From the IMG/VR virus record IMGVR_UViG_3300045988_179183: a stretch of DNA of 64,000 nt; one strand, given 5' to 3'. The notes beneath the pieces are model-generated. The model searched no databases, was not told the DNA's origin, and saw only the letters and a list, made by a program, of their open reading frames with translations. This document shows positions 1 to 19,908 of the stretch, piece by piece. Made by a program: the position numbers and the translations under genes. This DNA is from a virus. Positions within the stretch are counted from its first letter, which is position 1. Each line of letters opens with the position of its first letter.

Positions 1-540
1 TTTCCATTTGTCCTTGCTTTCAAGTACTTGAACTTTTCTCTTTCTCATATCAACCCATTTCTGCCACTCAGCCTTCCACCCATACTTTACCGACGCGGGA
101 GTTACGACGAGACATGGAAATAATTGAAGTGCTTCAACTAAAACGATTGACACACCCGTTTTTCCCAATCCCGGTGAACACCCGTTTATAGCGTTAGGGT
201 GATTTGCAAGGTAATGAATACATTCAATCTGATAATCACGTAAATTTCTTTTCAGATGGAGATCATTTATCAATTCCTTTATATTTTCCAACGAAATAAT
301 CTCCTCGTATTCTGGGAGAGTGAGATTATCCAATGAAGGTTGAGGTCTCTTGTTTACAAAATCATTCTGTTCAAGGAATCGTTCTATCAGTTTACCCTTA
401 TCCAACGAGATCTCACGGTACCATTCCTTCGTTTGGGGATTATAGAAGAAACCACCGATTTGCTTGAGCATGGATACAAGTGATGGGTCATATTTGAAAC
501 CCACATAGATGTATGTCTTCTCCAAATAAAAATACCGCAT
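1..540 (-). CDS. SNF2/SF2-type helicase, N-terminal part (CDS continues beyond window start)
   Basis: Truncated, so absent from the ORF track. Manual translation from ATG (540-538): MRYFYLEKTYIYVGFKYDPSLVSMLKQIGGFFYNPQTKEWYREI...LRDYQIECIHYLANHPNAINGCSPGLGKTGVSIVLVEAL...VVTPASVKYGWKAEW. DYQ motif plus GxGKT Walker A, as in SNF2-family helicases. The first ~45 aa look HARP-like. Confidence 0.65.
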   Translation of the reverse strand, partial: MRYFYLEKTYIYVGFKYDPSLVSMLKQIGGFFYNPQTKEWYREISLDKGKLIERFLEQNDFVNKRPQPSLDNLTLPEYEEIISLENIKELINDLHLKRNLRDYQIECIHYLANHPNAINGCSPGLGKTGVSIVLVEALQLFPCLVVTPASVKYGWKAEWQKWVDMRKRKVQVLESKDKWK

Positions 541-542
541 AA

Positions 543-2498
543 CTACCCGTTAATTTTCGACAAAATACCCTCCCTGTCATCGATCGATAAAATATCAACA
601 CCGAGTTCCTTCGCTTTATTAATCTTTGAGGAATTCCCGTTCACATCCTTGACGATCAGAATATCCGTGTTTTTACTAACCCCCGATACTATTTTATGAC
701 CCCTCCCCTCTAATTCACTTTCAAGCGATTTATCCCTCACACCAGAAAAACATATTGAGTAAGATTTACCCTGGCACTCAGTTCTCTTTTTTCGAATATA
801 CGTTTTAAATTTATCCAAGGGTATCATGTCCTTGTCTAATTCAATCATGCTTGATAGAAATTTTGATGCCACAATGGCACCGATCCCTTTGATTTCCCGT
901 AGACGGTTTTCAAGGTCGAACCGGCGATGTTCCGGGGAAGGCATCTTCCTCCATATCTCATCAAACTCAACATCATCAATGTTATCGAAAATTAACTGGC
1001 ATGTTTTCTCACCGAACGCACCACCGAAAACGTTACACGCGGTTAAAAGTCTCGCGAGGGGTATCTCGGTGAACAACCCGATCTTCTCTATCTGTAAAAA
1101 GATCTTATCATAATTCGCCACGCCAAGTCCCTCTATCTTGGTCCAAGCCTCTTTTGACATTGATAATATGTCCTTGATCGTTTTATAACCGTTTTCGTAT
1201 AATTTCTTAACCGTTGGTTCACCTATCTCCTCGATACCCATCGTGACAAAGAAAAACAGGTTTCTCGCGATGATCTTTTCCTTGCAATCTCGGTTGACAC
1301 AAACAAGTTCGACAAGGTTCTTATCCCAGCGTAACGGTCTCCCACAACTCGGACATATAATCATATCATCACGCATCTTTTCATAATCCGGTGCATCGTA
1401 CATTATCGTTTTATCATGCTTCGGTATGACATCGCCGGATCTCCTAACCTTGATGTTCGCTCCCTCGCAAATACAATTATCCACGATATATGCCGCGTTA
1501 TGTCCTGTAACATTTGTCACAGTCGCACCGGCCAGCTCAACGGGTTCTATGTTAATCACCGGTTTTGAGAGACCGTCCTTGCTGATCTTCCACGTGATAC
1601 CTGTTACCTTCGTTAGCTTACTATCATTCCATTCAGGAAATTTCACTGCCACGGCATATCGTGGGTTTCCATTTGGCAATCTTCCCAACTCCTTTCTAAG
1701 ATCGACGGAACTAATCTCCATGACGATACCGTCAATGTTATAAACATCGCCCCACTCGTCGTATAGCTGCTGGAAGATATCGGGATTATCCAATATTTCA
1801 TGAACAGTGGTAACCTCGTACTTGATATCACTAACCTGTTTCAGTTCGGCCATCTGGATCGATTTATCGAGATCAAGATCACAACCGTAAATAACGTAGT
1901 CAATTTTTGTCATAATATCAGCTCGCCATTTATCACCGTTAAACTGACCGGCAACCATGTTTCGAGCCGTTTTGTACTCGCCACTTTCAAGATACGGTTT
2001 GAATTCATCCTTTCTCATGATAGCCTCTCCCCAACAGTAATGCGCGCCAATCTCTCTCAAATGGATCATACCACGGCGCCTGTACCATAAAAGTTTGAAC
2101 CTTTCCGAACTCTCCTGACCTTCATCACCATCACCTCTTGTCCAAGCCTTCCCGTAAAGATCCGTCTCCGTGAGGAGGGAAATGCCGTCATATTTAGGTG
2201 TCAAAACCAATTTTGTTTCCCCGGGGAACGTTTTTAACCACTTTAACCACGAGATAACCTCATCCATCGTTTTAACTTTTTCCAAGCTAAACATCGGTAG
2301 AGGGAGTTTACTCACTCGATCCTTACCTTTTACCGACTCGATAACGCTTCTCGTCAACAGCATATGGTCGGGTTCTATCTCCCGTAAGTCGTCGATCAAT
2401 GAATCGTACTCCGCGTCCGTCATAATGGGAGACCCCTTTCTGTATAAATTATTCGCGTTCAGTATTTTTTCAACTAAAATCTCAACATCAGTTCTCAT
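543..2498 (-). CDS. ligA: NAD-dependent DNA ligase (LigA type)
   Basis: 651 aa. Adenylation motif KxDG (LTPKYDGISL). Cys4 zinc finger (CPSCGRPLRW...LVCVNRDC). HhH region. C-terminal BRCT-like segment (ICFSGVRDKSLESELEGRGHKIVSGVSKNTDILIV). Confidence 0.9.
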   Translation of the reverse strand: MRTDVEILVEKILNANNLYRKGSPIMTDAEYDSLIDDLREIEPDHMLLTRSVIESVKGKDRVSKLPLPMFSLEKVKTMDEVISWLKWLKTFPGETKLVLTPKYDGISLLTETDLYGKAWTRGDGDEGQESSERFKLLWYRRRGMIHLREIGAHYCWGEAIMRKDEFKPYLESGEYKTARNMVAGQFNGDKWRADIMTKIDYVIYGCDLDLDKSIQMAELKQVSDIKYEVTTVHEILDNPDIFQQLYDEWGDVYNIDGIVMEISSVDLRKELGRLPNGNPRYAVAVKFPEWNDSKLTKVTGITWKISKDGLSKPVINIEPVELAGATVTNVTGHNAAYIVDNCICEGANIKVRRSGDVIPKHDKTIMYDAPDYEKMRDDMIICPSCGRPLRWDKNLVELVCVNRDCKEKIIARNLFFFVTMGIEEIGEPTVKKLYENGYKTIKDILSMSKEAWTKIEGLGVANYDKIFLQIEKIGLFTEIPLARLLTACNVFGGAFGEKTCQLIFDNIDDVEFDEIWRKMPSPEHRRFDLENRLREIKGIGAIVASKFLSSMIELDKDMIPLDKFKTYIRKKRTECQGKSYSICFSGVRDKSLESELEGRGHKIVSGVSKNTDILIVKDVNGNSSKINKAKELGVDILSIDDREGILSKING

Positions 2499-3060
2499 AA
2501 TCAGTTTTTCTATATTGTTTCAACACTTCTTGGAATTCATTCGTTTTATCATACCCGCACCCCTCCATCTCCGGGCAAAAACCTCTGTATACACAGGACG
2601 GTACGCACTTATCCGCCATCACAGGATCTATCTCCCTCACCGCGTCTATAACTTGACGCCACGCCCTTCTCGTTTCTTTCGATGCCTTCATGCAGAGACG
2701 AACCTTCGATATATTTATTAACGCTTGTGCGTTAGCAGTCATATCCATGTCATTCAGTGAACCTTGTTCGAGTTTATCCCGGGGTACAATCAAATTCCTC
2801 CGATCCTCTCTCTGGGAATGAATAAATTTCTCACATCCCTCATGATGTCTCACTAGATGAACAGTGATCCATTGTTTTATATCCTGCCACGTCCATTCGA
2901 ATTCAACCAACCGAATCGGGCTATGCTCTGCCAGTAGCATTTTCGCTTCCCATGATTTTGAAGGCTCCCTGTCTAAAGGTCGTTTGCCAACCGTTCTTCT
3001 CGCTGCATTAAGAGCCCTCCCCCATGAGGTAACCCTTTCCATTCTAATTATTTTACTCAC
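2488..3060 (-). CDS. Divergent ThyX-like (flavin-dependent thymidylate synthase family) protein
   Basis: 190 aa. EHSPIRLVEFEWTWQDIKQWITVHLVRHHEGCEKFIHSQRED resembles the ThyX core (H-SP..E / RHRxxSxxxxSxR), but with RHH and Cys in place of RHR and Ser and one extra residue of spacing. Annotated start is GTG; an ATG lies 6 codons downstream. Confidence 0.5.
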   Translation of the reverse strand: MSKIIRMERVTSWGRALNAARRTVGKRPLDREPSKSWEAKMLLAEHSPIRLVEFEWTWQDIKQWITVHLVRHHEGCEKFIHSQREDRRNLIVPRDKLEQGSLNDMDMTANAQALINISKVRLCMKASKETRRAWRQVIDAVREIDPVMADKCVPSCVYRGFCPEMEGCGYDKTNEFQEVLKQYRKTDYEN

Positions 3061-3100
3061 AATCGTATTTATTGAATCTTGTTCTTATCTTTCAACACCA

Positions 3101-3132
3101 TAAAGATACACAATATTTATCTATTCTCCAAA
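3101..3132 (-). promoter_or_regulatory. Bacteroidota-type promoter, conserved-box class (copy 1), upstream of the ThyX-like/ligase operon
   Basis: Minus strand reads TTTG-N20-TATCTTTA (plus-strand taaagata at 3101-3108, caaa at 3129-3132). Lies within the conserved box GATAAATATTGTGTATCTTTATGGTGTT. Confidence 0.6.
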
Positions 3133-3168
3133 TGTTTTCACGGAAAAGTTCATGTAAAAAGATAAAAA

Positions 3169-3188
3169 GAGGAGGAAAATTCCTCCTC
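3169..3188 (-). terminator. Rho-independent terminator after CDS 3195..3500
   Basis: 8-bp GC-rich stem gaggagga/tcctcctc with a 4-nt loop, followed on the minus strand by TTTTTAT. It sits 6 nt after the stop codon. Confidence 0.7.
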
Positions 3189-3194
3189 GCATGG

Positions 3195-3500
3195 TTACTC
3201 AACATTTAAGACCCAGATATAATTATCGTGCCCAAACTTCATTGTTACCCGTTTCACCCCCTGCGCCTGCTCCAACAAGGATTTTCCACTCGGTGAATAA
3301 AACGCTTGATGAGATAAATACTGTGTGACATCTTTCCCGGTCAACTCATTGTAGCTTTGACCGATACCTTTTGTTGAAAAACTGTCAACGATCCAGAAAC
3401 TCAACTCCCCGAAATTCTCAAGGACCATGAGCTGAACTCCCTGATGTTTGACAATACCCAAACAAACTTCCCAGATATTGTTTGTTAATAACTCCGCCAT
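3195..3500 (-). CDS. hypothetical protein
   Basis: 101-aa ORF, same strand, abuts the neighbouring CDS (1-nt gap) and is followed by a terminator. No recognisable motif. Confidence 0.6.
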   Translation of the reverse strand: MAELLTNNIWEVCLGIVKHQGVQLMVLENFGELSFWIVDSFSTKGIGQSYNELTGKDVTQYLSHQAFYSPSGKSLLEQAQGVKRVTMKFGHDNYIWVLNVE

Positions 3501-3501
3501 A

Positions 3502-3822
3502 TTAATCTAAATTTGTACCGAGAATCTTCTTTTCATAGAATCGCTTCATCTCGGCATCGTGTTTTCGAACCTTTTTATTTCTCTCCATTATCCATCTCTT
3601 TTTATCATCATTGGAGAGAGAATCGAACCGTGCGAGATTAAACCCCACACCCCCTTCATTTTTCACATTCACCATCTCAACTTCTTGGTTACAATGATCG
3701 CAAACAAGCCGCTCCTTTGGTGTGAGATGTCCATCCCGAATCACGTAACTGACCGAATTAAAATGAATTTCTTCATTGTACTTGTCGCATTTCTCATTTC
3801 GACAATAAAATTTCGTCGCCAT
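3502..3822 (-). CDS. zinc-ribbon protein, function unknown
   Basis: 106 aa. Two CxxC pairs (CRNEKC ... CDHCNQE). Basic C-terminus. Confidence 0.6.
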   Translation of the reverse strand: MATKFYCRNEKCDKYNEEIHFNSVSYVIRDGHLTPKERLVCDHCNQEVEMVNVKNEGGVGFNLARFDSLSNDDKKRWIMERNKKVRKHDAEMKRFYEKKILGTNLD

Positions 3823-3823
3823 A

Positions 3824-4357
3824 TCAAAAATTTTTACGTTTTAAGTACATCGCGATGAGCAAACTATCGCATTTATTATCATCCATCTTCGTTGATCTTT
3901 CAGTTCTTCTAAGATCAACGGTGGGGAATAATTTCTTGCAGGCCTTGATAGAGGTTGCCTTCGTATCAGTTACCTCGGTCTTCCCGGACGATGATTTCTT
4001 CTTAATCAAACCCACGCCCTCCCACATAACCTTTTGCCATTCCTTCGGCTGTGGGTTAACAATGGTGATGCCTTTTGCCGCGACGAGACCGTTCAGCACC
4101 CCGGTTATATAACCGAAGTTAAACGTACTACCTGCCGACGCACCGAATAATGCATGAACCGATTCAATACCAACGATAATATCCATACCCTCAAACCGAG
4201 TGAATATACCCTCAATAACACCCCTAATGTGCCACAGATCGAATTCCGCTTTCGGATCTTTTTGAATCGGTATAAATTCAATCTCTTCATACGGTGGCAA
4301 GATACATATAAAACCCGCTTTTCCGGGATCAATTCCAATATAAACCTTCTCTTTCAT
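3824..4357 (-). CDS. RuvC-like Holliday junction resolvase
   Basis: 177 aa. YIGIDPGKAG (first catalytic Asp), GIESVH (Glu), and C-terminal DDNKCDSLLIAMY (Asp) fit the RuvC/RNase-H-fold resolvase pattern. Sits in the recombination module. Confidence 0.65.
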   Translation of the reverse strand: MKEKVYIGIDPGKAGFICILPPYEEIEFIPIQKDPKAEFDLWHIRGVIEGIFTRFEGMDIIVGIESVHALFGASAGSTFNFGYITGVLNGLVAAKGITIVNPQPKEWQKVMWEGVGLIKKKSSSGKTEVTDTKATSIKACKKLFPTVDLRRTERSTKMDDNKCDSLLIAMYLKRKNF

Positions 4358-6354
4358 TATTCTATCCTACTTATGTCGTTTTCCTTGATAACCTTCAAAA
4401 CCTTACTTCCAACCGCTTGGTTCACAACGTGAGTCGTTATCAGTATGGGAAATGAAAATTGATTCAATGATTTCACGAGGGATTTTAAACCCAGCGCATC
4501 GATTCCTTCCGCTATCTCATCCGTGAACAAAAAATTCAAACCGTTATGTTTACTTGAATTATTGATCATTTTCTGTTGTGCGAGTACCATCGCGTATTCC
4601 AATCTACCCCTCTCACCCCCTGAAAAAGAATTGAACGGCATCGCTTCATCCCTTATGATTGTCGGTGTGATCTCCTCCTTGATTGTACCATCGGCCTTTC
4701 TTTTGAAACCGTCAATACTAACTCGCAAATCGGACCCCATATCTTTCAACATCTCATTACAATTATATTGTATCTCCTTGATACTGATATTCGCAAGGTA
4801 CATTCTGAATTCTTTATATTGAATGAGCCAAACCCTCATATTTTCAATCTCCGACTCAACCTCTTTTAAAAGGTTATCGATATCTTTTAGAGTTACCTGG
4901 GCCTCGTATAAATCTGTCCTTCTTCTCGTTATTTCCTCGTTCCATGAATCACTCGGATCTTTCTCACTTATTTTTTTAATACATTCTTCCCATTTCGTTA
5001 TCTCATCCCTGCTATCGAGTATACTTTTTTCCTCCAATTTAATACGTCTATTATTGTTTTCAATCATCGATTGATTTTTATCGATGTCTTCTTCAATTTG
5101 AAGAATATTTTTCCTTAAAGACGATAATTCACGGGAAAAAGATATCTCGATCTCCCTTTCCGATTTTAATGAGTTCGTTGATTCGCAGCTTTCGTCCTCC
5201 AATCGCGATAAATCGTTCCTTAACGATTGGATGGATTTTTCAATCTCTTTTTTCAACGAAAGAATTTCCACCTTCTTCGATTCCTCTTCGTCAACATCCG
5301 AATCCTCATCAACGAGGAATCTATGGCCGCACTTGGGGCAGGTAATAACACCCGCGAGTTTCTTGTTTATCTCACCAAGCGCCATTTCAATTTCACGTTC
5401 AGTATCAACCGCGTCCTTTACTGCTGAATTCAATTCAATCTCTCTCTCTCGATAACCCTTCAAGCTCGCTTCGATATCACCGATTTTTCTATTTATCAAT
5501 GAATGTTCATCAACTTTTCGTGAGAGCGAATCGGTGTATTCCTTTAATTTCTTATTAACGGATACCAACTCCCCTTTAATATCCTCGTTTTCAGTCGAAA
5601 GACGGTCAATCGTTTTTCTACTCAATTCGATTGAATTTTCATAATTATCTATCTCATCCCTGTACTTTGATATCGCCTCCTCTTTCGCTTTCTCAAACTT
5701 CTCAAGAGAACATTCATTAATCTGTTCTTCGAGAACCGAAATTTTTCCTTGAATAAATGATTTTTTTTCAAGAATGTCCGCCCTTTCATGTTCCTTCGTT
5801 GATATCCCGACTTTGATATCATTATCAATATCATCAAGAAAACCTACGTTACTAAATCGGGCCATCAACTGAAGTTTTTGCGAATTTGATGATGAGAAGA
5901 AAGATGCAAAACGCTCCTTGTTCACTATATAATAATTACTCAGATCCTCCTTTGTGATACCGATCCATTCGATGATTCGATTATTCCCATCGTTCACTGT
6001 GGCGAATTGAATTGGTTCATCATTGATATAGAGTTCAAGTTTGTTACCCTTTCTCGTTAAAACCCTTTTGATGTGAAGAACTTGATCTCTTACCGCGCAA
6101 TAAATCCATGATTCGATAACCGATTCATTTTGGCCCCTTCTAATTAAATCGATGTCTCGGACATTCTTTCTAGAAGTATAATCGAGCCAACATTTCTCTA
6201 TCGCGGATTGAATCGCAGTCTTCCCACTTCCATTACTCTCCTGACCCTCATCGGATCTATTCTCACCAACCAGAAGCACCGGTCCTTCCTCGAAATCATA
6301 CTCAAGTTCCTTGAACGAAAGAAAATTCGTTAACTTTAATTTTATCGGTTGCAT
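4357..6354 (-). CDS. SbcC/Rad50-like (T4 gp46-like) recombination ATPase
   Basis: 665 aa. N-terminal Walker A (ESNGSGKTAI). Long coiled-coil centre with a CxxC zinc hook (CPKCGHRF). ABC signature SFSGGERGRL. Walker B LFTDEIAEGID. Confidence 0.85.
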   Translation of the reverse strand: MQPIKLKLTNFLSFKELEYDFEEGPVLLVGENRSDEGQESNGSGKTAIQSAIEKCWLDYTSRKNVRDIDLIRRGQNESVIESWIYCAVRDQVLHIKRVLTRKGNKLELYINDEPIQFATVNDGNNRIIEWIGITKEDLSNYYIVNKERFASFFSSSNSQKLQLMARFSNVGFLDDIDNDIKVGISTKEHERADILEKKSFIQGKISVLEEQINECSLEKFEKAKEEAISKYRDEIDNYENSIELSRKTIDRLSTENEDIKGELVSVNKKLKEYTDSLSRKVDEHSLINRKIGDIEASLKGYREREIELNSAVKDAVDTEREIEMALGEINKKLAGVITCPKCGHRFLVDEDSDVDEEESKKVEILSLKKEIEKSIQSLRNDLSRLEDESCESTNSLKSEREIEISFSRELSSLRKNILQIEEDIDKNQSMIENNNRRIKLEEKSILDSRDEITKWEECIKKISEKDPSDSWNEEITRRRTDLYEAQVTLKDIDNLLKEVESEIENMRVWLIQYKEFRMYLANISIKEIQYNCNEMLKDMGSDLRVSIDGFKRKADGTIKEEITPTIIRDEAMPFNSFSGGERGRLEYAMVLAQQKMINNSSKHNGLNFLFTDEIAEGIDALGLKSLVKSLNQFSFPILITTHVVNQAVGSKVLKVIKENDISRIE

Positions 6355-6355
6355 G

Positions 6356-8356
6356 TTAATCCAATTTTATCTGTTTACGTATTTCCTCCAATAATTCCGG
6401 GTTGTCGGATAGTACTGTTTTAACATTCACCTCTCCTTGACCCAGACTCGTTCCATTATAGGAGAACCAACTTCCGTTCTTCTTGATGATACCCTGCTCG
6501 ATCGATAAATCTAATATTTCTTGCATGATATCGATCCCCTTACCGAAAGCGATTGAAATCTCCGCCTGCTTAAACGGGGGTGCTATTTTGTTTTTTTTAA
6601 CGGTGACCTTGCTCCGAATAGCGGTGACATCGTCACCCTCTTTTTTATTACCCATCCTGCAAATCTCGATACGCTGGGATGCGTAAAATTTCATCGCGTT
6701 TCCTCCGGGTGTTGTGTTCGCCGCACCCATAAATCCGATATTACTTCGGTATTGATTTATGAATATAACCAACGTCTTATTCTTCTTTGCCTTCTGCGCT
6801 ATAAGGGGTAACTCCGCGCTCATCAACCGAGCGACTAATGCGATCACGGCATCACCGACCTCACCATCTATCCTCGCCTTGGGTACTAACGCGGCGATGG
6901 AGTCAAGGATAATTATACCAATATCCGGGCAATCCAACATCCTCCTCATGATGGAAAGGGCCATCTCTGCCGAATCTGCCTGACTTAACACAAACTTTTC
7001 CGGGCTCAAATCAACCCCGAGTGCCCTCATATAATCAGGATCCATTGCTTGCTCGGTATCGATATAACCCGCCGAGCGACCCATATCCTGTACTTCCCTG
7101 CACGCGTGAATGGCGAGGGAAGTATTATGTGTTATAACATGATCCTCAAGCAAATATGAATGATCGGGTGAATCTATGCTAATACAAGTACATTCGCCTG
7201 CATCAACCTCATCTATTGCGACAACCTTTCTATGACACCCCCTTCCTGTGAGAAGAGCGGCTTTACTATGCTTTCTTTTGCAACTAAATGGATTGAACGT
7301 CACCCTCAACGAAATAGAGTAATAGGAAAAACCTTTCGTGTTATGACATAATTTAACCGGGGACGTATATCCACCTAAACTTTGAACAAGATAAATGATA
7401 TCGTTTATAAGTTGAAGTGATGCGCTTGTATATGATACAACACTTGCCGAAACGCAACCATCCGTATCCATTAATCCCGCCAACAGATCCCTTCTTTGCG
7501 AAATAGAACCGTTGAGATAGTTTTTTGGTATAAACTTATCGGACGAAGGAACTCGAATACCTAATCGATCAAGTTCAGAAATATATTCATTTTCACGACT
7601 ATAAATATCCTTTACAATTCGATATTGAGAACAATTTTTCTGATTTCTACAAACAGTTATCCTGTAACCATCATTTAATTCTAATTTAACTCGATCGATA
7701 ATATCGGAATCAGTGTTTCCTATCGCCATAGTGGGATAACAATGGAGGCATCCATCGCCAAGAAGAACCCCCAAAATATAAGGAGAGATAAAACAATCAA
7801 TAGGTTCTCTCTCTAAAGGTTTGCATAAAGGAATCTCCCATCTATAATTAGGCTTTGTTATGCCCCTCCTATAATCACTCGGAACGCGATTTCTTAAAAC
7901 GCCTTTTTCTATCATTGATTTAAGCGTTCTGGGTGCATATTTTCGAATATGAGGGTTACCCATATCTTTTGCGAACCAAATATGGTCCTCCGAGCATATT
8001 TTTTCAACACCATCAATAAACCGAACCTTATATAATCGTTTTATTCCTTGAGGATAAACACCGGTTACAGGATAAAGGTTTCCATCCGACGCGTAAACCT
8101 TATCCCCTATTCTTAAACTCTCAATAGGCGTGAGACCTTGTTCCGTAAATATCTTTGTACCATTCTTTAGGGCTTTGCCACTCGATTCATGTCCGAATAT
8201 CTCAACCAGCCTACCCAGTCCGTAACCACCACCTAGCGCTCTATCTAGAATCAACGAACCCGATGGCACTCTCTCAACATCTATGTAACTACCACATATT
8301 GCTTCCTTGCCGAACTCTTTCTCAATTCCGGCAATCATACTTTTTAAATCCATCAC
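6356..8356 (-). CDS. recA: RecA/UvsX-family recombinase interrupted by an intein
   Basis: N-extein SGSLILDRALGGGYGLGRLVEIFGHESSGK joins C-extein TSLAIHACREVQ...IIILDSIAALVP...FINQYRS, restoring the P-loop GHESSGKT. The exteins sum to 316 aa. Confidence 0.9.
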   Translation of the reverse strand: MMDLKSMIAGIEKEFGKEAICGSYIDVERVPSGSLILDRALGGGYGLGRLVEIFGHESSGKALKNGTKIFTEQGLTPIESLRIGDKVYASDGNLYPVTGVYPQGIKRLYKVRFIDGVEKICSEDHIWFAKDMGNPHIRKYAPRTLKSMIEKGVLRNRVPSDYRRGITKPNYRWEIPLCKPLEREPIDCFISPYILGVLLGDGCLHCYPTMAIGNTDSDIIDRVKLELNDGYRITVCRNQKNCSQYRIVKDIYSRENEYISELDRLGIRVPSSDKFIPKNYLNGSISQRRDLLAGLMDTDGCVSASVVSYTSASLQLINDIIYLVQSLGGYTSPVKLCHNTKGFSYYSISLRVTFNPFSCKRKHSKAALLTGRGCHRKVVAIDEVDAGECTCISIDSPDHSYLLEDHVITHNTSLAIHACREVQDMGRSAGYIDTEQAMDPDYMRALGVDLSPEKFVLSQADSAEMALSIMRRMLDCPDIGIIILDSIAALVPKARIDGEVGDAVIALVARLMSAELPLIAQKAKKNKTLVIFINQYRSNIGFMGAANTTPGGNAMKFYASQRIEICRMGNKKEGDDVTAIRSKVTVKKNKIAPPFKQAEISIAFGKGIDIMQEILDLSIEQGIIKKNGSWFSYNGTSLGQGEVNVKTVLSDNPELLEEIRKQIKLD
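7124..8173 (-). mobile_element. Intein (350 aa) with LAGLIDADG homing endonuclease in the RecA P-loop; class-3 signature
   Basis: Begins ALKNGTKIF (Ala1; codon gcc at 8173-8171). Ends VITHN followed by +1 Thr (7123-7121). LAGLIDADG blocks ILGVLLGDGC and LLAGLMDTDGC. Block B is SEDHIW (Trp at B:12). Block F is ECTCISID (Cys where class 1 has Asp). Block G is THN (Thr at G:5). Confidence 0.85.
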
Positions 8357-9411
8357 TCAACGTATTTTTTCAGGAAATTATATCCCGCGTTAAAATCATA
8401 TTTTTTCTCGTCACAGAATTTTTTAAACACATCTTTCATACTTGCCCTCGACACCGGATTATTTTCTTCCCCGTTAACGGGAGCAACATCACACTCTATA
8501 TCCTTTCTCCGCTTCTTCACAACAATACCCTTCTCCGTGAAAATTTCATCAGCAAGTGATTTAAGTTTACTTTCAGATCCGATAAATTCAATTTTCACGT
8601 TTGAATTCGATGTGTCTTGCTCTTCAGCGAGCTTAACTAGCTCTGATTTCGATATGTTATCTAGGTCAACCTTGAATGAACGGTATTCCCTGAATCGTGC
8701 CTTCTCAAAAATCACCTCGCCGTCATCACATAGCAACCAAAAGCCTTTTTCCGGATCCTCGCCGAAATTATTCTGCCTTATCGAAGATAGGTGATATATT
8801 CCCTGTGATACTTCTTGAGCGTTGTGATAGTGGCCGAGATAAACTCTCGTGAAGGTTTCTTTCAATAACTTGGGTGTGATCTTGCTTATGACTTTTGAGC
8901 CGTCATTGTTGACACTCCCCGTTAACGCGGTATGACTCAACAATACCTTGGGTGCCGATGCCGCGATACCGTTCTCGGAGATCTTTCTCCTCAACTTCTC
9001 ATACCTCTCCAACCATATTTCAGTGTCATAAAACGGTATAACACCCACCGCTAGATCTTGAATTGATATTAATTCCTCGGTTCTGTGAAGGTGAAATGCC
9101 GGGTGATGATAAAACGGATCCAAAAAACTACTATCACTTTTATAATCAGTCTTATCATGGTTTCCGGGAATACAACTCAGACCCATGTGATTCTCCCTGA
9201 TCATGTCAAGTATCGCCGTGAACGCATTCAAAACTTCCTCTCTCTGTGAAATCCTACTATCGAACACATCTCCCAAACAGAGCAATGTCTTGCAATCATG
9301 TTGTTGTGCAAGTTTGATCTGCTGATCGATAAGATCTTTCACGATAGCTATATTAGATTGTTGTAGATGCCAATCCGTTGAGATGACACCTATGACTCTA
9401 TCCTTATCCAT
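8353..9411 (-). CDS. SbcD/Mre11-like (T4 gp47-like) nuclease
   Basis: 352 aa. Calcineurin-like phosphoesterase motifs: ISTDWHL, LGDVFD, GNHD, LSHTAL, GHYH. Overlaps the RecA start by 4 nt. Confidence 0.85.
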   Translation of the reverse strand: MDKDRVIGVISTDWHLQQSNIAIVKDLIDQQIKLAQQHDCKTLLCLGDVFDSRISQREEVLNAFTAILDMIRENHMGLSCIPGNHDKTDYKSDSSFLDPFYHHPAFHLHRTEELISIQDLAVGVIPFYDTEIWLERYEKLRRKISENGIAASAPKVLLSHTALTGSVNNDGSKVISKITPKLLKETFTRVYLGHYHNAQEVSQGIYHLSSIRQNNFGEDPEKGFWLLCDDGEVIFEKARFREYRSFKVDLDNISKSELVKLAEEQDTSNSNVKIEFIGSESKLKSLADEIFTEKGIVVKKRRKDIECDVAPVNGEENNPVSRASMKDVFKKFCDEKKYDFNAGYNFLKKYVE

Positions 9412-9426
9412 ATTTCATATTGATAA

Positions 9427-9450
9427 AAGAAAGGGTGTTACCCCTTTCTT
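9427..9450 (-). terminator. Probable rho-independent terminator after the SSB-like gene
   Basis: 9-bp stem aagaaaggg/ccctttctt with a 6-nt loop, overlapping the stop codon. The minus strand continues TTTTATCA. Confidence 0.5.
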
Positions 9451-10759
9451 ATTTTTTTCGATTAAGAATGTTTCTTAAAGAAGCTTTCACATCTTTCGGA
9501 TCGTGAACCTTAACACCTGTATCCTCCTGTTTTACCTCTCTTTTTTCGGTTACCGGTGATGCATTGGGCACTTCATCCATGACTCCGGGTTCATCCCCCT
9601 CTATTTCATCAAACGGTAATTCTTCCCCCTCCATCGCGAGTTGATACCACTTAACAAGATCCTCTTTCGATAAATTCGGTAAGGTATACCCTTCGTCGGA
9701 ATAATTGGATGCTATATACTCACGAAGCATTTTTTTCATCTTCAGTGGTGTCACTTCATTCGATTCTTCTTTTTTAAATGCCTGCTCGACCTCATCCTCG
9801 GCAACTTGTTTCGGTTCCGGAACGATTTCATATAACTTACTTACAAGTTCTTCAAAATCTGGATCACGCAACACGTCGAACTCCGGGTGTTGCGCTTCGA
9901 GATTCTTCAACCCCTCTAACGCAAGATTCAAATCACGAGTTGTGTAGCAGTCAACGTATAATTCTTTCAAGGATGGCTGACCTACCAATCTTTCTAATTC
10001 CGAATCGGAGATCTTACATTTTTCAAAGAAATCTTCCCATGATTGTCCAACCGTGGGTTTTCCCGCCTCAACATCGTAATAAACTCTTTCCTTTCCGTTC
10101 TGCGTTTTAGTTCCCTTCACAATAATCAACGGGAAACCATCGTCAGGTGATGAGAACATATCCAAGGATACTTTATTGCACTCTTCCGCCAATTCGATTG
10201 ATTTCTTGTGCAATAAATTGAACCAATTTGTTCTCAATTCGAGACGATACAAATCCCTTTTTGCATCCTGCACGTAGCAGACCCAGGTTGATTGAGGAAT
10301 ACACCCAGGTTTCCAATTCTTTCCCGATCCCCCACCCTGTATCGGAAATAAGAATTTCTTCTTATCATTCTCATCCTGAAAATCTTCCGCTTTTTCAAAC
10401 ACCTTTTGGATGTAGAACTCAACGGGATCCTGAAGACCTGATTCCTTAACCGCGTCACAGTGGGTTGTTGCGATGAAAATTTTCTTATTCTTCATCACTT
10501 TCCGCCCTGTTTTCTCACCGTTTTCCCATTCGTCATCTAAAACGGGTAACTGCGTTGTACGCATCGCGACGTACGCCGCCGTTTCCGGGTCTGATGATGG
10601 TAGCACGCGGAGCCAATTTCGTCCGTCGCTGATTGTGTAAAAGGGAGCTCGTCGTCCATCGGTTTGATAAAATGTTTTATTCGTTTCCTTCTGTTTCTGT
10701 TCCTCTTTCTGAATAGTCTCAAAACTTGATGCTTTAAATCTACTTCTGTCAAATGCCAT
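9449..10759 (-). CDS. gp32-like single-stranded DNA-binding protein (tentative)
   Basis: 436 aa. SDGRNWLRVLPSSDPETAAYVAM parallels the T4 gp32 segment [21 protein letters not shown]. Strongly acidic tail (EELPFDEIEGDEPGVMDE). Lies between the DnaE and Mre11/Rad50 genes. Confidence 0.5.
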   Translation of the reverse strand: MAFDRSRFKASSFETIQKEEQKQKETNKTFYQTDGRRAPFYTISDGRNWLRVLPSSDPETAAYVAMRTTQLPVLDDEWENGEKTGRKVMKNKKIFIATTHCDAVKESGLQDPVEFYIQKVFEKAEDFQDENDKKKFLFPIQGGGSGKNWKPGCIPQSTWVCYVQDAKRDLYRLELRTNWFNLLHKKSIELAEECNKVSLDMFSSPDDGFPLIIVKGTKTQNGKERVYYDVEAGKPTVGQSWEDFFEKCKISDSELERLVGQPSLKELYVDCYTTRDLNLALEGLKNLEAQHPEFDVLRDPDFEELVSKLYEIVPEPKQVAEDEVEQAFKKEESNEVTPLKMKKMLREYIASNYSDEGYTLPNLSKEDLVKWYQLAMEGEELPFDEIEGDEPGVMDEVPNASPVTEKREVKQEDTGVKVHDPKDVKASLRNILNRKK

Positions 10760-10779
10760 AACTTTACGTTTTAAATTGT

Positions 10780-11055
10780 TTAATTAATCTTTTTACTTAA
10801 CTCTGATAATCTACTTAAAAATTCGTCCTTCAATAAATGATATTTATTTAACAATGAACTTAAATCACTAGCCGTATCAAATGACACTCTCTCAACTGCG
10901 AGAGATATCGCCCTTTCTAAAGTGACACCGTATGCTAAATCTTTCGAATATGATTCCTTGATTTTCTCGCCGCTTCTTATTTCGAACACGTCATATCTAC
11001 CAAGGGTACCCGGGCAGGGTTTGATCTCAATATTCTCAATTATTAATGAATCCAT
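10780..11055 (-). CDS. hypothetical protein
   Basis: 91-aa ORF, co-directional, 1-nt gap to the upstream CDS. Confidence 0.55.
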   Translation of the reverse strand: MDSLIIENIEIKPCPGTLGRYDVFEIRSGEKIKESYSKDLAYGVTLERAISLAVERVSFDTASDLSSLLNKYHLLKDEFLSRLSELSKKIN

Positions 11056-11056
11056 G

Positions 11057-11623
11057 CTATAATCCTTTCTTGATTAAAAATGTGTTTACTTTTGCTTCAA
11101 CTAATTCGGATAAAAATTCCTCCGGTGATACGGGTCGAACTATCGAACTTAACTTCTTACTTTTATCATTGATCGCCCAGAACCAAGAATCCAAAATATT
11201 CAACATTCTCTGATTCTCAATCATATCATCCTTCAACGCCTGAAATTCAGTGTCAGTATAGATAGCTTCATCAACTGATTTCTCCGTTAATTTGATATAA
11301 TCATCACCGAATTTAAACTTTCCTTGATTTTTATTCGCTTCGATACGGATATCCTTGCGAAAATTCGCCTCGTAAATATCACATTTCAATTTACTCCTAT
11401 TGTATAGCGCCTCTGCTTCCGCCTTCCAGATCCCCACCTTGTTCAACAATGCTGAAACGGTCACTATCTCGCCGTACAAATTTCCATGATCGATCCTGCA
11501 CAAAGCGTCAATATCTATTTCATCTTCCGAATCCTCCGATATCAGCACAACAGGCCTATTTCCTATATGAACAACAGTATTCATCTCTTCTTGTTTTCGT
11601 TTACGTCGTTTAAAGATACCCAT
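11057..11623 (-). CDS. hypothetical protein
   Basis: 188-aa ORF, co-directional. No recognisable motif. Confidence 0.6.
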   Translation of the reverse strand: MGIFKRRKRKQEEMNTVVHIGNRPVVLISEDSEDEIDIDALCRIDHGNLYGEIVTVSALLNKVGIWKAEAEALYNRSKLKCDIYEANFRKDIRIEANKNQGKFKFGDDYIKLTEKSVDEAIYTDTEFQALKDDMIENQRMLNILDSWFWAINDKSKKLSSIVRPVSPEEFLSELVEAKVNTFLIKKGL

Positions 11624-11656
11624 TCAAAAATCAAATCACAACAACCAAAATAACCG

Positions 11657-13650
11657 TTACGTTAGTATCAACACCTCCGTGTTTTCATTCGCGTAAATAG
11701 CCATTTGTTGATTTCTCTCGTCCCAGTTTGTTCGACCGTTCATAAACAGGATCGTATCCTTACAGTTTTTCAAAATATTTTCGAACGATTCATATTCATT
11801 GGACCAGAAAACAACCGTTCGAAACTGGTAATTCTGCTCAAGCGTGATGATGGCGTAATCACCCTTTCGTCCAGTTTTTATTGCGATTTCATACACATAA
11901 CCCCCAGCCGTTAAATTATAACTTTTCGTTTCCAAGGGATCGTCCACTATTTCCGAAAAATCTTTGAAAGGATACTCCGAATCACCAACCATCTCCTTGA
12001 AATAATCCAAGTATAATTTTGAGTAATTGAAAAACGCCAAACCACACAATTTCTTCTGCCTCAAATTATGCCACCACTCTAGTTTCACCTTATCGGGATT
12101 CAACTCAAACACATCTTTTTCCTTATCGATTTTTACCTTATTAACGGTTCTGTATCGTTTTATAAGTTTTATCCTGTCTATAACGTTTGATATTGATTCT
12201 AGCTTATCGAAAGCACCACATGAAATCAAATTTTCTATAACACTTTTATTAACGGCACTTCCTTTCTGTGAATGACGGTCTAAAAATTCATCAAAACCAA
12301 AGTAGGGGCCGTTCTCGGATCTTTCCTTCATGATCTCCGCTTGTGCCTTCTCGCCGACCTGTTTCACTGATGAGATTGACCACACCAAACTTTTATCAGT
12401 GAAATCTGTCTTGATCTTATCCGTCGATTCATTAATATCAGGGGGGGTCACCTTGATATTTCCTATTTCATTTATCTCGTGTAGATAAACGGGGAAATCA
12501 TCATCATCAGCGTAGGAGAACGCAACGGACCAGAAAGCTAACGGATAATTTACTTTTAACCACTGACACGCGTATCCTGTGTTTGCATACGCGACCGCGT
12601 GGGATTTATTGAACTGATAATCAGCCATATTCTCAATTTCCTTCCATGTCTCTTCCGCGTATTTTTGATCAACACCGAAATTCTCGATATAATTTTTCAA
12701 AAATCTTTCCCTGAAGGGTTGAAGTTTCTCCACGTTCTTCTTACCAATCGCACGGCGTGCGCCATCCGCGTCAACAAGATTAAACCCTCCTAACACTTGG
12801 AACATTTTCATTGTCTGCTCCTGCCATATCATGATATACCGGCTACTTTGAAGTATTTCTCCCGCCCCTTTTCTAAATGATACTTCCCTCTCACCCTTTT
12901 TACGAAGGATATACTCGTTATGGAAATTTCCCTCCATAACCCCCGGTCGATATAACCCAATACAGTTTACAAGCTCTGTTATGTTATCGGGCTTTAACAT
13001 CTTACAATATCCGGTTAACCCTTTCGCGCCAAAATGAAATACATCACCATTCCACCCCCTTTGAAAATACGAGTAAACTTTCGGATCATCAAGAGGTAAT
13101 TCATAGAGGTTGATTTCTTCACCAGTATCATCTTTGATTAATTTCAATATATCACCGAACTTACTTAACTGCAAGATTCCCAGAATATCCTCTTTCAAAA
13201 AACCCGCGGTGTCAAGTTCACCACCCTCCCACTCACTGATCAACATATCACCCTGCCGGCGAATCGGATTCCAATGATACATATCCTTTTCATCCGGGTA
13301 AATCATCATGGCACATGCGTGAATCGATTTCGCCTTAGGTTGACCCTGTATCAAGCCGACCATCTCGATGATCTCCGGGTTTCTGTTAATGAAATTCGCG
13401 ACATCTTTTTTCTGACAGGCGATTCTGAATAAATCATCAAAATCCTTCACACCATCTATTTTAGAAGTAAATGAGTTTACCTCTGCGACGGGGACACCTT
13501 TCAACCTACATAGATCCTTGACGGCGGCCTTGACTTGAAGAGTCGTGTAGGTTCCCACGGAGCAAACTTGATCGGCACCGTAACGCTCCTCCATGTATCT
13601 TTTAACTTCCGGTCTTCTCGCCATCTCGAAATCAGTATCGATGTCCCTTA
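11657..13650 (-). CDS. dnaE: DNA polymerase III alpha subunit (DnaE), downstream exon / C-terminal part
   Basis: The ORF-track protein starts at MARRPEVKRYMEERYGADQVCSVGTYTT. The frame is open a further 23 codons upstream with no ATG/GTG/TTG start and encodes ...AARLRDIDTDFE, the Pol III alpha catalytic Asp pair (E. coli PDFDVDF). Downstream motifs: FHFGAKGL, YRPGVMEG, FNKSHAVAYA. The 5' boundary near 13650 is approximate. Confidence 0.85.
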
Positions 13651-14643
13651 GTCTGGCAGCGAACCGTGCTTGATTCGCTGCCGCTTTTCTAATTTAATTG
13701 ATTTAACTATATATTCCATTTCAAATTTTGTTTTATCTGTTTTACAAATCTAGATTTTTCAATAAAAGACATCACCTTTCTCCTTATATCTGTTTCTCTT
13801 AAATACACCTCCGTATATAAAGGAACCCATTTCCTTTCGAATAGCTTGCCTTTCTGAAGAAAAGTAAGTAATGTATCATGATTACCACTCGGTGATAATG
13901 TTTTTTGTGCGTCATAAGCAGATAGAAATTTATGTACCTCTAAAGTATAAATATTTATCATCACAATCGGTTTCGCATTCGGATTAAGACTCCCTTTCGC
14001 AACACCCCGGTCTTTTCGGATTACTGAGATATGATCCTTCATTTCCTGGGACCATTTATTCCCATAATTACCATTTTTCCCACCCACTCGTCTCGGCGGC
14101 TTAATACCGCCAATTTTTAAATTTAGTGTTCGTCGATCTCTCACCCACTGATGATCAACTACACGTTTTTCCTGAATCAATGCATCATCTACGGTATTAA
14201 AATACAACAAATTCACTCTCTTAAACGCACCAACCCCGTACAATCTCACGCAATTACCTAATGGCATTGGTAAAGGGTCCTTGTAATCTTTTAAACCGGT
14301 GGAGTAATCCGTCTTGATTCCGCCACCAATATAAGAATCTTCCACTGTTTTTGATGAATGAACCCCAACATATACTTTTCCGTTTACCATACAGGTTGTT
14401 TTATACAAAATATTATAAAGGTTATTGTCACCCTTAAACGGATTCTTTTGTCCGTTCGAGCATTTTGCTAATATCTCCTGATCCGACACTAACGATTCTA
14501 TCTCCATCTTTTAAATCTTGAGCTTTTACATCTAATTTTTCTCCCGATCTAAAAATACACACTTTATCATCAAAATCCAACTCTATATCTAAATTATTAT
14601 CGAATGTGATTTTTACAACGTCCACTTCAACTTGTTGACCGAT
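13625..14643 (-). mobile_element. Intervening sequence in dnaE, probably a group I intron carrying a GIY-YIG homing endonuclease (boundaries approximate)
   Basis: Separates ...LLFERFLNKGR (codons ending ~14644) from ...RDIDTDFE (13627-13650), which are adjacent motifs in DnaE. Contains a free-standing GIY-YIG ORF. A 9-bp stem ggcagcgaa/ttcgctgcc (13655-13663/13674-13682) lies just 5' of exon 2. Confidence 0.6.
13707..14507 (-). CDS. GIY-YIG homing endonuclease
   Basis: 266 aa. N-terminal NLYNILYKTTCMVNGKVYVGVHSS...YIGGG fits the GIY-(10-11 aa)-YIG module. Basic C-terminal region with repeated GxxNxNxK-like motifs (GGKNGNYGNKW, GSLNPNAKP), typical of the NUMOD-type DNA-binding tails of intron endonucleases. 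Confidence 0.8.
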   Translation of the reverse strand: MEIESLVSDQEILAKCSNGQKNPFKGDNNLYNILYKTTCMVNGKVYVGVHSSKTVEDSYIGGGIKTDYSTGLKDYKDPLPMPLGNCVRLYGVGAFKRVNLLYFNTVDDALIQEKRVVDHQWVRDRRTLNLKIGGIKPPRRVGGKNGNYGNKWSQEMKDHISVIRKDRGVAKGSLNPNAKPIVMINIYTLEVHKFLSAYDAQKTLSPSGNHDTLLTFLQKGKLFERKWVPLYTEVYLRETDIRRKVMSFIEKSRFVKQIKQNLKWNI

Positions 14644-16056: not shown

Positions 16057-16104
16057 ATTTTAAATATAATGGGAACCCTTTTACGGGGCCCCGTAAATTC
16101 AAAT

Positions 16105-16701: not shown

Positions 16702-16745
16702 AATCTCTTGTTTTTAAGTTGTTACTGTTTCATTGTTTCAATGTC

Positions 16746-16776
16746 TAAAGATACACAATGTTTATTTATTTACCAA
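16746..16776 (-). promoter_or_regulatory. Bacteroidota-type promoter, conserved-box class (copy 2)
   Basis: Minus strand reads TTGG-N19-TATCTTTA within AATAAACATTGTGTATCTTTAGAC. It lies 45 nt upstream of the CDS start at 16701. Confidence 0.55.
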
Positions 16777-19292: not shown

Positions 19293-19293
19293 T

Positions 19294-19878: not shown

Positions 19879-19908
19879 TTTTAAACAATTAATTTATTTC
19901 TAACACCA

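Follow-up and report, generated by a model that had tools for sequence, protein, structure and literature searches.

The 64,000-nucleotide stretch of viral DNA analysed here (IMG/VR record IMGVR_UViG_3300045988_179183, hereafter the window) carries a recA gene that is interrupted by an exact, in-frame insertion of 1050 nt (Table 1). The insertion falls between Lys61 and the Thr of the RecA Walker A motif (GHESSGK/T, with the slash at the junction) and makes up residues 62-411 of the 666-aa product of the open reading frame. Its junction codons are AAA (Lys) at position -1, GCC (Ala) at the first position, AAT (Asn) at the last and ACT (Thr) at +1, and the RecA proteins of relatives begin with MDLKSM at the position of the recA ATG. 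An earlier note on this DNA had proposed an insertion at 7124-8173 that splits GHESSGK/T and begins with Ala (gcc), a placement that turned out to be exact to the base; the strings on which it relied (SEDHIW, ECTCISID and VITHN/T) were all found and supply His64, Trp66, Cys330, Thr348, His349 and Asn350.

Excision of the insertion in silico yields a 316-aa RecA that matches the Pfam RecA family from end to end (E 2.3e-80), whereas in the unspliced precursor this match is broken into two pieces. The intein-less allele that the earlier note had suggested looking for in related phages exists within the same species: the intein is precisely missing from L001 and L009-L014, and these natural alleles read GHESSGKTSLAIH with neither a gap nor an additional residue at the junction. 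Because they join cleanly, they independently confirm the intein boundaries. Over the parts compared, which run from the P-loop to the C-terminus and for L001 cover a fragment, the mature RecA encoded by the empty alleles L001, P0399 and L009-L014 is 99-100% identical to that of the intein-plus gene. A frameshift, a gene fusion and the insertion of an unrelated domain were ruled out by the reading frame, the intein fold and the precise absence of the element from sister alleles. The insertion is removable in frame, adopts a HINT fold with blocks A, B, F and G, possesses the block B His and the C-terminal His-Asn, and is followed by a nucleophile at +1, as is characteristic of inteins.

The carrier of this recA gene is a prevalent human-gut phage of ~100 kb. 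Its host is probably a member of the Bacteroidota, as the earlier note had also supposed, and this assignment is plausible given that a RecA with identical exteins is labelled Barnesiella intestinihominis in RefSeq and that the nearest cultured relatives of its TerL are Bacteroides phages. A tRNA scan for host clues found none. In a blastn search of the recA region against GenBank phages there was no match; no phage isolate or deposited record comes close, and the best RecA protein match is 49% identical. An exact look-up of the 665-aa precursor found no record of it; a 660-aa form (P0287) was recovered by homology search, and the same allele is already in IMG, where it is annotated plainly as RecA. 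The TerL and QueC genes nearby also contain inteins, and the annotations of all three, including the 665-aa "RecA", should say so.

Table 1. Features of the intein-containing recA locus, in window coordinates; amino acid numbers of intein features count from Ala1.
Feature	Position	Strand	Remarks
recA open reading frame	6356..8356	-	666 aa; includes GTG at 8356, one codon 5' of the ATG
recA precursor gene	6356..8353	-	665 aa from ATG at 8353; N-extein, intein and C-extein
N-extein part	8174..8353	-	60 aa; ends GHESSGK, the first part of Walker A
Presumed homing site, upstream half (12 nt)	8174..8185	-	TCG AGT GGC AAA, against AGT AGC GGY AAG in intein-less alleles
Intein	7124..8173	-	350 aa, Ala1 to Thr-His-Asn350
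HINT N-terminal lobe, blocks A and B	7814..8173	-	aa 1-120, inner boundary approximate; gp41-1 match E 3e-11; beta strands in AlphaFold model
Ala1 (GCC)	8171..8173	-	no N-terminal nucleophile
Block B His64-Ile65-Trp66 (B:10 to B:12)	7976..7984	-	Trp66 is the W of WCT
LAGLIDADG homing-endonuclease domain	7253..7813	-	aa 121-307, boundaries approximate; Pfam LAGLIDADG_3 E 6.8e-9
First motif, YILGVLLGDG	7751..7780	-	aa 132-141; catalytic Asp in GDG; nearly invariant in alignment A2
Lys213	7535..7537	-	aligned with the Lys of PI-SceI 'VKNIP'
Second motif, LLAGLMDTDG	7457..7486	-	aa 230-239; catalytic Asp in DTDG; D241 and D243 of alignment A2 invariant
HINT C-terminal lobe, blocks F and G	7124..7252	-	aa 308-350
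Cys330 (TGT), block F position 4	7184..7186	-	predicted class-3 nucleophile and branch point
Thr348-His349-Asn350, block G positions 5-7	7124..7132	-	Thr is the T of WCT; Asn predicted to cyclise, releasing the intein
C-extein part	6356..7123	-	255 aa and stop; Thr+1 completes Walker A as GKT
Thr+1 codon (ACT)	7121..7123	-	first C-extein residue
Presumed homing site, downstream half (12 nt)	7112..7123	-	ACT TCC CTC GCC, against ACY AGT CTR GCC in intein-less alleles

The class-3 signature and its counterparts in known inteins

Class-3 inteins, as defined by Tori et al. 2010 (PMC2807308), lack an N-terminal nucleophile and possess a Trp two residues past the block B His, a Cys at block F position 4 and a Thr before the C-terminal His-Asn, which together form the WCT triplet. 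The recA intein has Ala rather than Cys, Ser or Thr at position 1, which sets it apart from class 1, and it combines Trp at B:12, Cys at F:4 and Thr at G:5 with Thr at +1; the presence of the full triplet sets it apart from the KlbA-type inteins of class 2. The +1 residue of class-3 inteins is Thr or Ser and rarely Cys, and it is Thr or Ser in 188 of 193 homologous intein copies that we compared. Across these copies the block B His (B10) and the terminal Asn (G7) are invariant, 184 have Trp(B12), 191 have Cys(F4) and 186 have Thr(G5), and the complete triplet is present in 180 of the 193 (93%), 163 of which are without an N-terminal nucleophile. The block B Trp is likewise invariant in alignment A1.

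A single-sequence search of the PDB reached the class-3 DnaB structures at E ~0.3, and it took a profile built from the splicing lobes to connect them firmly: the family profile matches MchDnaB1 (6rix) at E 1e-19 and MsmDnaB1 (6bs8) at E 1e-18. In the profile alignments to both, HLW is matched by HQW, the block F Cys by the Cys of VRCVEVD, and THN by THN, so that the comparison with known class-3 inteins proposed in the earlier note places Trp, Cys and Thr at equivalent positions. An AlphaFold2 model of the intein (pLDDT 92, pTM 0.91) combines a HINT fold with a LAGLIDADG endonuclease domain; among its Foldseek matches are TliVMA and PI-SceI, two inteins that carry endonucleases (E 1e-17), as well as gp41-1 and, with a target TM-score of 0.84, the class-3 Msm DnaB intein. 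The alignment of the triplet, its near-invariance in the 193 copies and the AlphaFold model together make the class-3 reading well supported by sequence, and the class-3 assignment of the earlier note stands on the published sequence features and on the match to the two mycobacterial inteins.

Several characterized inteins resemble this element in part. MP-Be DnaB of mycobacteriophage Bethlehem, the class-3 prototype, is also phage-encoded and comparable in length (its terminal Asn lies at position 341, against 350 aa here), and it likewise interrupts a RecA-fold ATPase, the DnaB family being related to RecA-like ATPases. The two share the absent N-terminal nucleophile, the block B His-x-Trp, the Cys at F:4 and a Thr-His-Asn end with Thr+1 after it (PMC2807308), and the same mechanism is predicted for both; this likeness is drawn from described features, and residue equivalence was aligned on MchDnaB1 and MsmDnaB1. 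The MP-Be host protein is an actinobacteriophage replicative helicase, whereas the protein interrupted here is RecA, in a gut phage that probably infects Bacteroidota. MchDnaB1 and MsmDnaB1 (6rix, 6riy, 6bs8) share the HINT fold (Foldseek target TM-scores 0.79-0.84) and a location in the P-loop region of a RecA-fold ATPase, and each residue of their His-x-Trp, their block F Cys and their Thr-His-Asn has its counterpart in the alignment, a link that is strong by family profile; unlike the recA intein, they are mini-inteins without an endonuclease and are chromosomal in mycobacteria. The closest solved sequence is gp41-1 (6qaz; E 3.3e-11, ~40% identity over the first ~65 residues, profile E 2e-25), which shares a phage-like origin and the Thr-His-Asn end but belongs to class 1, is split in nature, begins with Cys1, lacks an endonuclease and has Asp at F:4 (Asp107 in the wild type, aligned with Cys330). 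A special link to gp41-1 was set aside, since this class-1 intein scores as high against the whole class-3 profile as the class-3 structures do, and its resemblance to class-3 inteins has already been noted in the literature.

Inteins within RecA itself are known from other settings. Those of Mycobacterium tuberculosis and M. leprae also occupy a bacterial-type RecA, and PI-MtuI is likewise a LAGLIDADG endonuclease; unlike the phage intein they are chromosomal and actinobacterial. They belong to class 1 and lie at other, non-P-loop sites of RecA. The RadA intein of Pyrococcus horikoshii, a class-1 mini-intein on an archaeal chromosome, resembles the present one in that it lies in the ATP-binding region of the archaeal RecA homologue. 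Splicing of this RadA intein is required for recombinase activity and has been shown to be conditional (PMC4760082). Nearest in kind are other metagenomic RecA inteins at the junction of GK with T or S, which share the pattern A/Q1, H-x-W, C and THN followed by T/S in the same register and possess LAGLIDADG domains. One of them (P0288) is 70% identical and belongs to the same phage group; the others are just ~30% identical, their RecA proteins are distant from the phage RecA studied here, and none of these carriers is described as containing an intein in its source record.

The endonuclease domain and the recoded insertion site

The earlier note had described the LAGLIDADG endonuclease as intact, which agrees with our analysis insofar as the domain has both catalytic Asp residues and a Lys equivalent to that of PI-SceI, all of them in place in the AlphaFold model; cleavage activity is predicted from these features. 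The domain has two motifs that each end in a catalytic acidic residue within a two-lobed alpha/beta structure, aligns to PI-SceI residues 208-454 and is matched by Foldseek to TliVMA, PI-SceI and I-DmoI. Comparison with the orthologous intein of L006, which is 70% identical and retains all catalytic residues, gave dN/dS values of ~0.07-0.15 in the HINT and endonuclease parts (~0.15 in the endonuclease), values that are rough because dS has reached saturation between these two lineages of the intein.

Comparisons between strains set the intein apart from the gene that carries it. A comparison of the window with L007 shows a single difference in the 1050 nt of the intein (99.9% identity) against 50 in the 948 nt of the exteins (5%; Fisher 9e-16), with the short flanks of the intein identical, and six cluster members have inteins of identical protein sequence on slightly different exteins. 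Base composition differs as well, the intein having a GC content of 37.5% and a GC3 of 28% against 46% and 53% in the C-extein. Some of this similarity of inteins across strains could be due to ordinary mosaic recombination; upstream of recA, too, the window and L007 are only ~1% diverged, a figure that rises to 5-7% downstream.

The sequence immediately around the insertion point is recoded. The joined flanks of the intein-plus allele read TCGAGTGGCAAA followed by ACTTCCCTCGCC (in a shorter form, GAATCGAGTGGCAAA followed by ACTTCCCTCGCC), and the common site of the empty alleles reads GAAAGTAGCGGTAAG followed by ACCAGTCTAGCC, with a GGC/ACT/CTG variant also present. In one pair of intein-plus and intein-less alleles, differences occupy 11 of the 24 positions within 12 nt on either side of the insertion point compared to 38 of 886 elsewhere (p 5e-9), and in a second pair 7 of 24 at the site compared to 5 of 924 (p 2e-9); the window and L001, which carries an indel, were aligned by MAFFT. 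Six further genomes differ from the intein-plus flanks at 9-11 of the 24 positions. Wherever they were translated or read by codon these local differences are synonymous, and they include switches of Ser codons between the AGY and TCN families. As judged from sequence, the population data appear to fit a recent and ongoing spread of the intein, and it is this evidence of recent mobility, comprising a near-identical intein on diverged exteins and heavy synonymous recoding within the 24 nt around the insertion point, that is new here.

Predicted splicing and competing explanations

On the combined evidence we consider it very probable that the recA element is a class-3 intein of full length that contains a LAGLIDADG homing endonuclease, splices by the class-3 route and spreads by homing. 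By analogy with the established class-3 pathway (Tori 2010; Brace 2010), the thiol of Cys330 would attack the Lys(-1)-Ala1 peptide bond and form a block F branched thioester bearing the N-extein, and transesterification would then move the N-extein to the hydroxyl of Thr+1 to give a block G branched ester. Cyclisation of Asn350 would release the intein and an O-to-N acyl shift would create a native Lys-Thr bond, leaving a normal RecA of 315 aa. The P-loop GHESSGKT is whole only after splicing, and therefore the precursor should be ATPase-dead. The excised intein would cut intein-less recA site-specifically during co-infection and would subsequently be copied into it by repair.

The WCT signature alone is no proof of activity, because an engineered gp41-1 onto which Ala1 and the triplet had been grafted (6riz) showed almost no splicing (PMC7664689). 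This failed graft, together with a class-3-like intein of Arthrobacter that is a documented pseudogene (PMC3196547) and the presence of the intein-less allele on ~267 contigs compared to ~33 with the intein (15 cluster members listed), speaks for an intein that is splicing-dead or badly impaired, in which case the recA allele would be a tolerated loss of function and recombination would be supplied by host RecA or by co-infecting intein-less phages. We regard this as quite improbable, given that each catalytic residue is intact, that the same reading frame is open in many independent assemblies and that the L006 orthologue keeps its catalytic residues with dN/dS at ~0.1 despite being merely 70% identical; the Arthrobacter pseudogene, moreover, is without the block F Cys that the recA intein has. 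Least likely of all, and in our view scarcely credible, is splicing by another route, for example one in which Thr+1 attacks the N-terminal junction directly, in the manner of class-2 KlbA inteins, and Cys330 has only a structural role. Although Ala1 by itself is common to class-2 inteins too and the mechanism proposed here is a prediction, class-2 inteins by definition lack the WCT triplet (PMC2807308) and have so far been found only in KlbA genes (PMC3196547), whereas the recA intein has the whole WCT triplet together with Thr+1, groups among WCT inteins and aligns with proven class-3 members.

A weightier alternative, which we nonetheless judge unlikely, concerns the endonuclease: the splicing domain would work while the endonuclease is inactive, and the presence, absence and recoded flanks of the intein would stem from ordinary homologous recombination among phage strains and occasional precise loss. 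The genomes are clearly mosaic, as the change in window-L007 divergence across recA attests, and every empty allele sampled has 7-11 changes among the 24 flanking positions relative to the intein-plus gene, so that these alleles may not be substrates. Against this stand the conserved catalytic Asp, Asp and Lys, the purifying selection on the domain, and the combination of a near-identical intein with identical short flanks on 5%-diverged exteins, the classic pattern left by homing and accompanying co-conversion. The recoding, too, is confined to a stretch like the recognition site of a LAGLIDADG enzyme, which is usually ~24 nt in size. For the origin of that recoding we offer a tentative suggestion, somewhat doubtful as it stands: rather than drift, it might be the selected outcome of an ongoing contest between endonuclease and recA, in which case the abundant empty alleles would be cleavage-resistant and the intein-plus flanks would derive from a donor.

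Extent of the family and implications

The earlier note had expected this intein to extend the host range of class 3, an expectation that is not supported: class-3 splicing has been shown outside Actinobacteria for the Deinococcus Snf2 and Burkholderia IcmO inteins (PMC3196547 among the sources), ~17,500 database proteins match the recA intein, and its relatives in public metagenomes number in the thousands. Class-3 inteins are also found at the same RecA position, between GK and T or S, in several other RecA lineages (P0288, the P0295/P0304 family, P0170, P0308, P0330, P0347 and P0324 are examples; the junctions of the 757-aa family and of P0308 were read by eye). A 2020 paper that mentions metagenomes describes a naturally split class-3 intein, and Tori and Perler 2011, as represented in PMC3196547, treated class-3 inteins as a single clade and proposed a phage origin for the class. 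The recA intein is hence an ordinary member of a very large known family, and the claim to novelty is weak.

What the intein offers instead is material and context. It is a natural, full-length class-3 intein that is probably active, judging by its conserved residues, and it has a splicing domain that resembles gp41-1 to an unusual degree. Engineered class-3 chemistry failed in gp41-1, and a comparison of the two could reveal compensating residues. The mycobacterial DnaB class-3 intein is reportedly sensitive to redox state or zinc, and thiol-dependent class-3 chemistry could make RecA maturation redox- or zinc-sensitive in this phage by analogy. Hundreds of public assemblies contain intein-plus and intein-less versions of this phage, which opens the way to a population study of homing and target-site escape; if the recoded flanks do reflect a contest between endonuclease and recA, a common gut phage would be a natural system for following the intein homing cycle at population scale. 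More broadly, the class-3 family is plentiful in gut phages, with the RecA P-loop as one of its regular landing sites, and this abundance fits the proposed phage origin of the class.

Boundaries and class of the RecA intein

The 350 residues of the recA precursor that lie outside RecA follow GHESSGK and precede TSLAIH, with junction codons AAA (Lys-1), GCC (Ala1), AAT (Asn350) and ACT (Thr+1), in exact agreement with the coordinates 7124-8173 and the alanine codon (gcc) read in the earlier note. Pfam splits its RecA match in two pieces on the precursor and gives a single unbroken match (E 2.3e-80) on RecA minus these residues; the inserted part yields a LAGLIDADG_3 match and weak Hint-domain matches. 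The observation of a RecA P-loop intein is confirmed.

Features of the recA region and of other genes discussed in the text
Feature	Position	Strand	Remarks
recA precursor ORF	6356..8356	-	666 aa; 665 aa from ATG at 8353, the start used by relatives
RecA intein	8173..7124	-	350 residues
SbcD-like phosphoesterase gene	8353..9411		one side of recA
SbcC-like ATPase gene	4357..6354		665 aa; other side of recA
DnaE (DNA polymerase III alpha) gene	11657..16056	-	two ORFs
DnaE ORF	14434..16056		
DnaE ORF	11657..13624		
ORF between DnaE ORFs	13707..14507		266 aa; resembles GIY-YIG-type homing endonuclease (KVYVGV...SYIGGG)
QueC (7-deazaguanine pathway) gene	17562..19349	-	595 aa, owing to class-1 intein
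TerL gene	26983..30996	-	1337 aa; two class-1 (Cys1) inteins with LAGLIDADG domains

Class-3 inteins lack an N-terminal Cys, Ser or Thr, possess Trp at B:12, Cys at F:4 and Thr at G:5 (the WCT triplet), and usually have Thr or Ser at +1 (PMC2807308). The earlier note had assigned the RecA intein to this class, and all four criteria plus Thr+1 are present, the signature residues being His64, Trp66, Cys330, Thr348, His349 and Asn350. Using 40 aligned relatives as input, we obtained a confident AlphaFold2 model (pLDDT 92, pTM 0.91), for which Foldseek returned the endonuclease-bearing inteins TliVMA and PI-SceI at full length (E about 1e-17) and, for the splicing lobes, gp41-1, the class-3 Msm DnaB intein (target TM-score 0.84) and MchDnaB1 (0.79). 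Equivalence of the signature positions was assessed by searching a profile of the splicing lobes of 24 family members against PDB sequences. This profile matched MchDnaB1 (6rix, E 1e-19) and MsmDnaB1 (6bs8, E 1e-18), placing H-L-W over H-Q-W, the block F Cys over Cys and T-H-N over T-H-N, such that Trp, Cys and Thr occupy equivalent positions; wild-type gp41-1 has the class-1 Asp in the column of the block F Cys. Together, sequence and modelled fold support assignment to class 3, in which case Cys330 would be an obligate nucleophile and splicing would proceed through a block F branched intermediate. The signature is necessary but not sufficient, because gp41-1 with grafted Ala1/WCT failed to splice (PMC7664689).

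The endonuclease, which had been described as intact, is so by sequence: the motifs YILGVLLGDG and LLAGLMDTDG are both present and align with PI-SceI blocks C and E, two catalytic Asp included, and Lys213 aligns to the Lys of PI-SceI 'VKNIP'. Among 40 relatives, these motif and catalytic columns show little or no variation. The orthologous intein in L006, a sister phage lineage, has 70% amino acid identity; compared with it, the endonuclease domain has a dN/dS of about 0.15 and the N-terminal splicing lobe one of about 0.07, both rough values since synonymous sites are saturated.

Comparison with other class-3 and RecA inteins

A HMMER scan against 1.84 billion representative proteins gave 17,533 matches with E<=1e-3, of which 2,479 had E<=1e-30. 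Among 193 full-length related intein copies in the best 150 proteins, His (B10) and Asn (G7) are found in all 193, Cys (F4) in 191, Thr (G5) in 186, Trp (B12) in 184 and Thr or Ser at +1 in 188; the full WCT triplet occurs in 180/193, and in 163/193 it is combined with the lack of an N-terminal nucleophile. The first residue is most often Ala (101 copies), and the P-loop Gly-Lys precedes most copies. On these counts and the profile matches, the RecA intein belongs by sequence to a very large group of class-3 inteins and carries the full class-3 signature.

Splicing of class-3 inteins has been shown for mycobacteriophage MP-Be DnaB (PMC2807308) and Catera gp206 and, beyond mycobacteriophages, for Deinococcus Snf2, Burkholderia IcmO, and Msm and Mle DnaB. 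A naturally split member is described in work that refers to metagenomes, and it has been proposed that class 3 forms a single clade that arose in phages. The site between P-loop Lys and Thr is termed a "classic" intein site (PMC5050341), inteins of unstated class are reported from gut Bacteroidetes phages (PMC7886860), and a 2015 survey listed bacterial RecA inteins from Actinobacteria, Cyanobacteria and Proteobacteria only. In the literature searched, RecA was nowhere described as carrying a class-3 intein. The same allele is nevertheless already in databases (P0287, plus P0401/P0402 in IMG), as is a sister allele whose intein is 70% identical (P0288), and class-3 inteins occupy the register between GK and T or S in at least six other RecA-family lineages, including a 757-aa family with 633 members in its 90%-identity cluster. 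The host-range extension that had been anticipated is thus minor, since the class is abundant and known from several phyla and metagenomes; the RecA intein adds to the known class-3 inteins.

Class-1 inteins lie in the RecA P-loop at two other registers (P0066/P0067 and P0394), namely GGES/C...HN/CGKT and GESG/C...HN/SGKT (slashes, splice junctions). Class-1 inteins at other P-loop registers and later sites occur in the phage or bacterial RecA proteins P0066/P0067, P0394, P0321 and P0322; P0321 has a class-3 P-loop intein and a second intein.

The phage, its probable host and its other interrupted genes

In human-gut metagenomes the phage occurs as an element of ~96-103 kb, and all relatives share the gene order SbcD-like/recA/SbcC-like. 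It is very common: P0399, an intein-less RecA, is indexed in 386 assembly-collection blocks, of which 81 contain 50-200-kb contigs. RefSeq lists P0399 under Barnesiella intestinihominis as a RecA (WP_418448714.1); the entry hints either at this host or at a phage contig assigned to the wrong organism. Among cultured phages, the spliced TerL is nearest to the Bacteroides thetaiotaomicron phages DAC16-23 (34% identity, E 1e-95), others reaching 23% or less. Given this label and the TerL affinity, a Bacteroidota host, as the earlier note had proposed, is probable. A scan of the whole 64-kb window (1..64000) with ARAGORN yielded no tRNA gene.

Other genes of this phage are also interrupted. One TerL intein follows the P-loop (ASRSSGK/CLSPE...TVVHN/SYEG, aa 125-482), the second lies at YLCVLG/CVRPD...IISHN/TPYS (aa 629-1054), and removal of both leaves 553 aa. 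The QueC intein (GRCGS/CIEES...YLVHN/CTER) spans about aa 250-572; in the related phage L002, QueC has 245 aa and no intein. The C-terminal DnaE ORF has 962 aa in L002, with an intein giving a weak HNH match, and 683 aa without an intein in the relative L004.

Intein-less alleles and evidence for recent mobility

The earlier note had proposed looking for an intein-less allele in related phages, and such alleles were found. A search with the spliced RecA recovered many 310-315-aa RecA proteins, 88-91% identical, on ~100-kb contigs, as well as fragment P0045 (locus L001), which is 99% identical and reads GHESSGKTSLAIH; the L001 DNA is missing exactly the 1050 nt of the intein. Long (660/665-aa) and short (310/315-aa) forms share the 90%-identity cluster of the window's protein. 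One short member, P0399, is 100% identical to the mature RecA from the P-loop onward, and the six ~100-kb genomes with P0399 that were examined (L009-L014) all have an empty site. Because natural alleles without the insertion exist, the insertion is an intein with correctly placed boundaries. In one intein-less lineage (L004/L005, P0019), GKST replaces GKTS after the P-loop Lys, exchanging the residue that would be intein +1, and the upstream flank GAA TCG AGT GGT AAA is similar to the intein-plus flank. Another protein, P0043 (238 aa, 19 members), is a RecA C-terminal fragment with an unrelated start, MEFSSEEQAMDP..., 100% identical to the window's RecA over the BLAST-aligned part (73% of query); this form could stem from faulty assembly or gene calling, or be a rearranged allele.

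Between the window and L007, both intein-plus, 1/1050 nt differ in the intein and 50/948 in the recA exteins (Fisher 9e-16), and the first differences on either side of the intein are met 28 nt upstream and 33 nt downstream. In six more members of the cluster, identical intein proteins are set in exteins that vary by up to 1.1%. The intein is compositionally foreign to recA (GC 37.5%, GC3 28%; C-extein 46%, 53%). Ordinary mosaic recombination also plays a part in this phage, because window-L007 divergence (~2500..11500) is about 1% upstream of recA (8300-10500), 0.1% in the intein and 5-7% downstream (7100 down to about 3300), a pattern suggestive of a recombination breakpoint at or close to recA.

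Differences between intein-plus and intein-less alleles concentrate at the insertion point. Within 12 nt on each side, 11/24 positions differ between the window and L001 (38/886 elsewhere; Fisher p 5e-9), 7/24 between L006 and L008 of the sister lineage (5/924; p 2e-9) and 9-11/24 between the window and L009-L014 (42-51/909, about 5%; p 1.5e-8 to 5.5e-6). Wherever codons were read, the protein remains GHESSGK/TSL (or /TTF): intein-plus alleles read TCG AGT GGC AAA / ACT TCC CTC and empty alleles AGT AGC GGY AAG / ACY AGT CTR, with Ser codons from different codon families. This recoding may reflect short donor flanks co-converted at intein arrival, or empty alleles may have been selected for cleavage resistance; the flank data are compatible with both and do not separate them. 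The most useful additional result is this population evidence for recent homing, together with a recoded target site.
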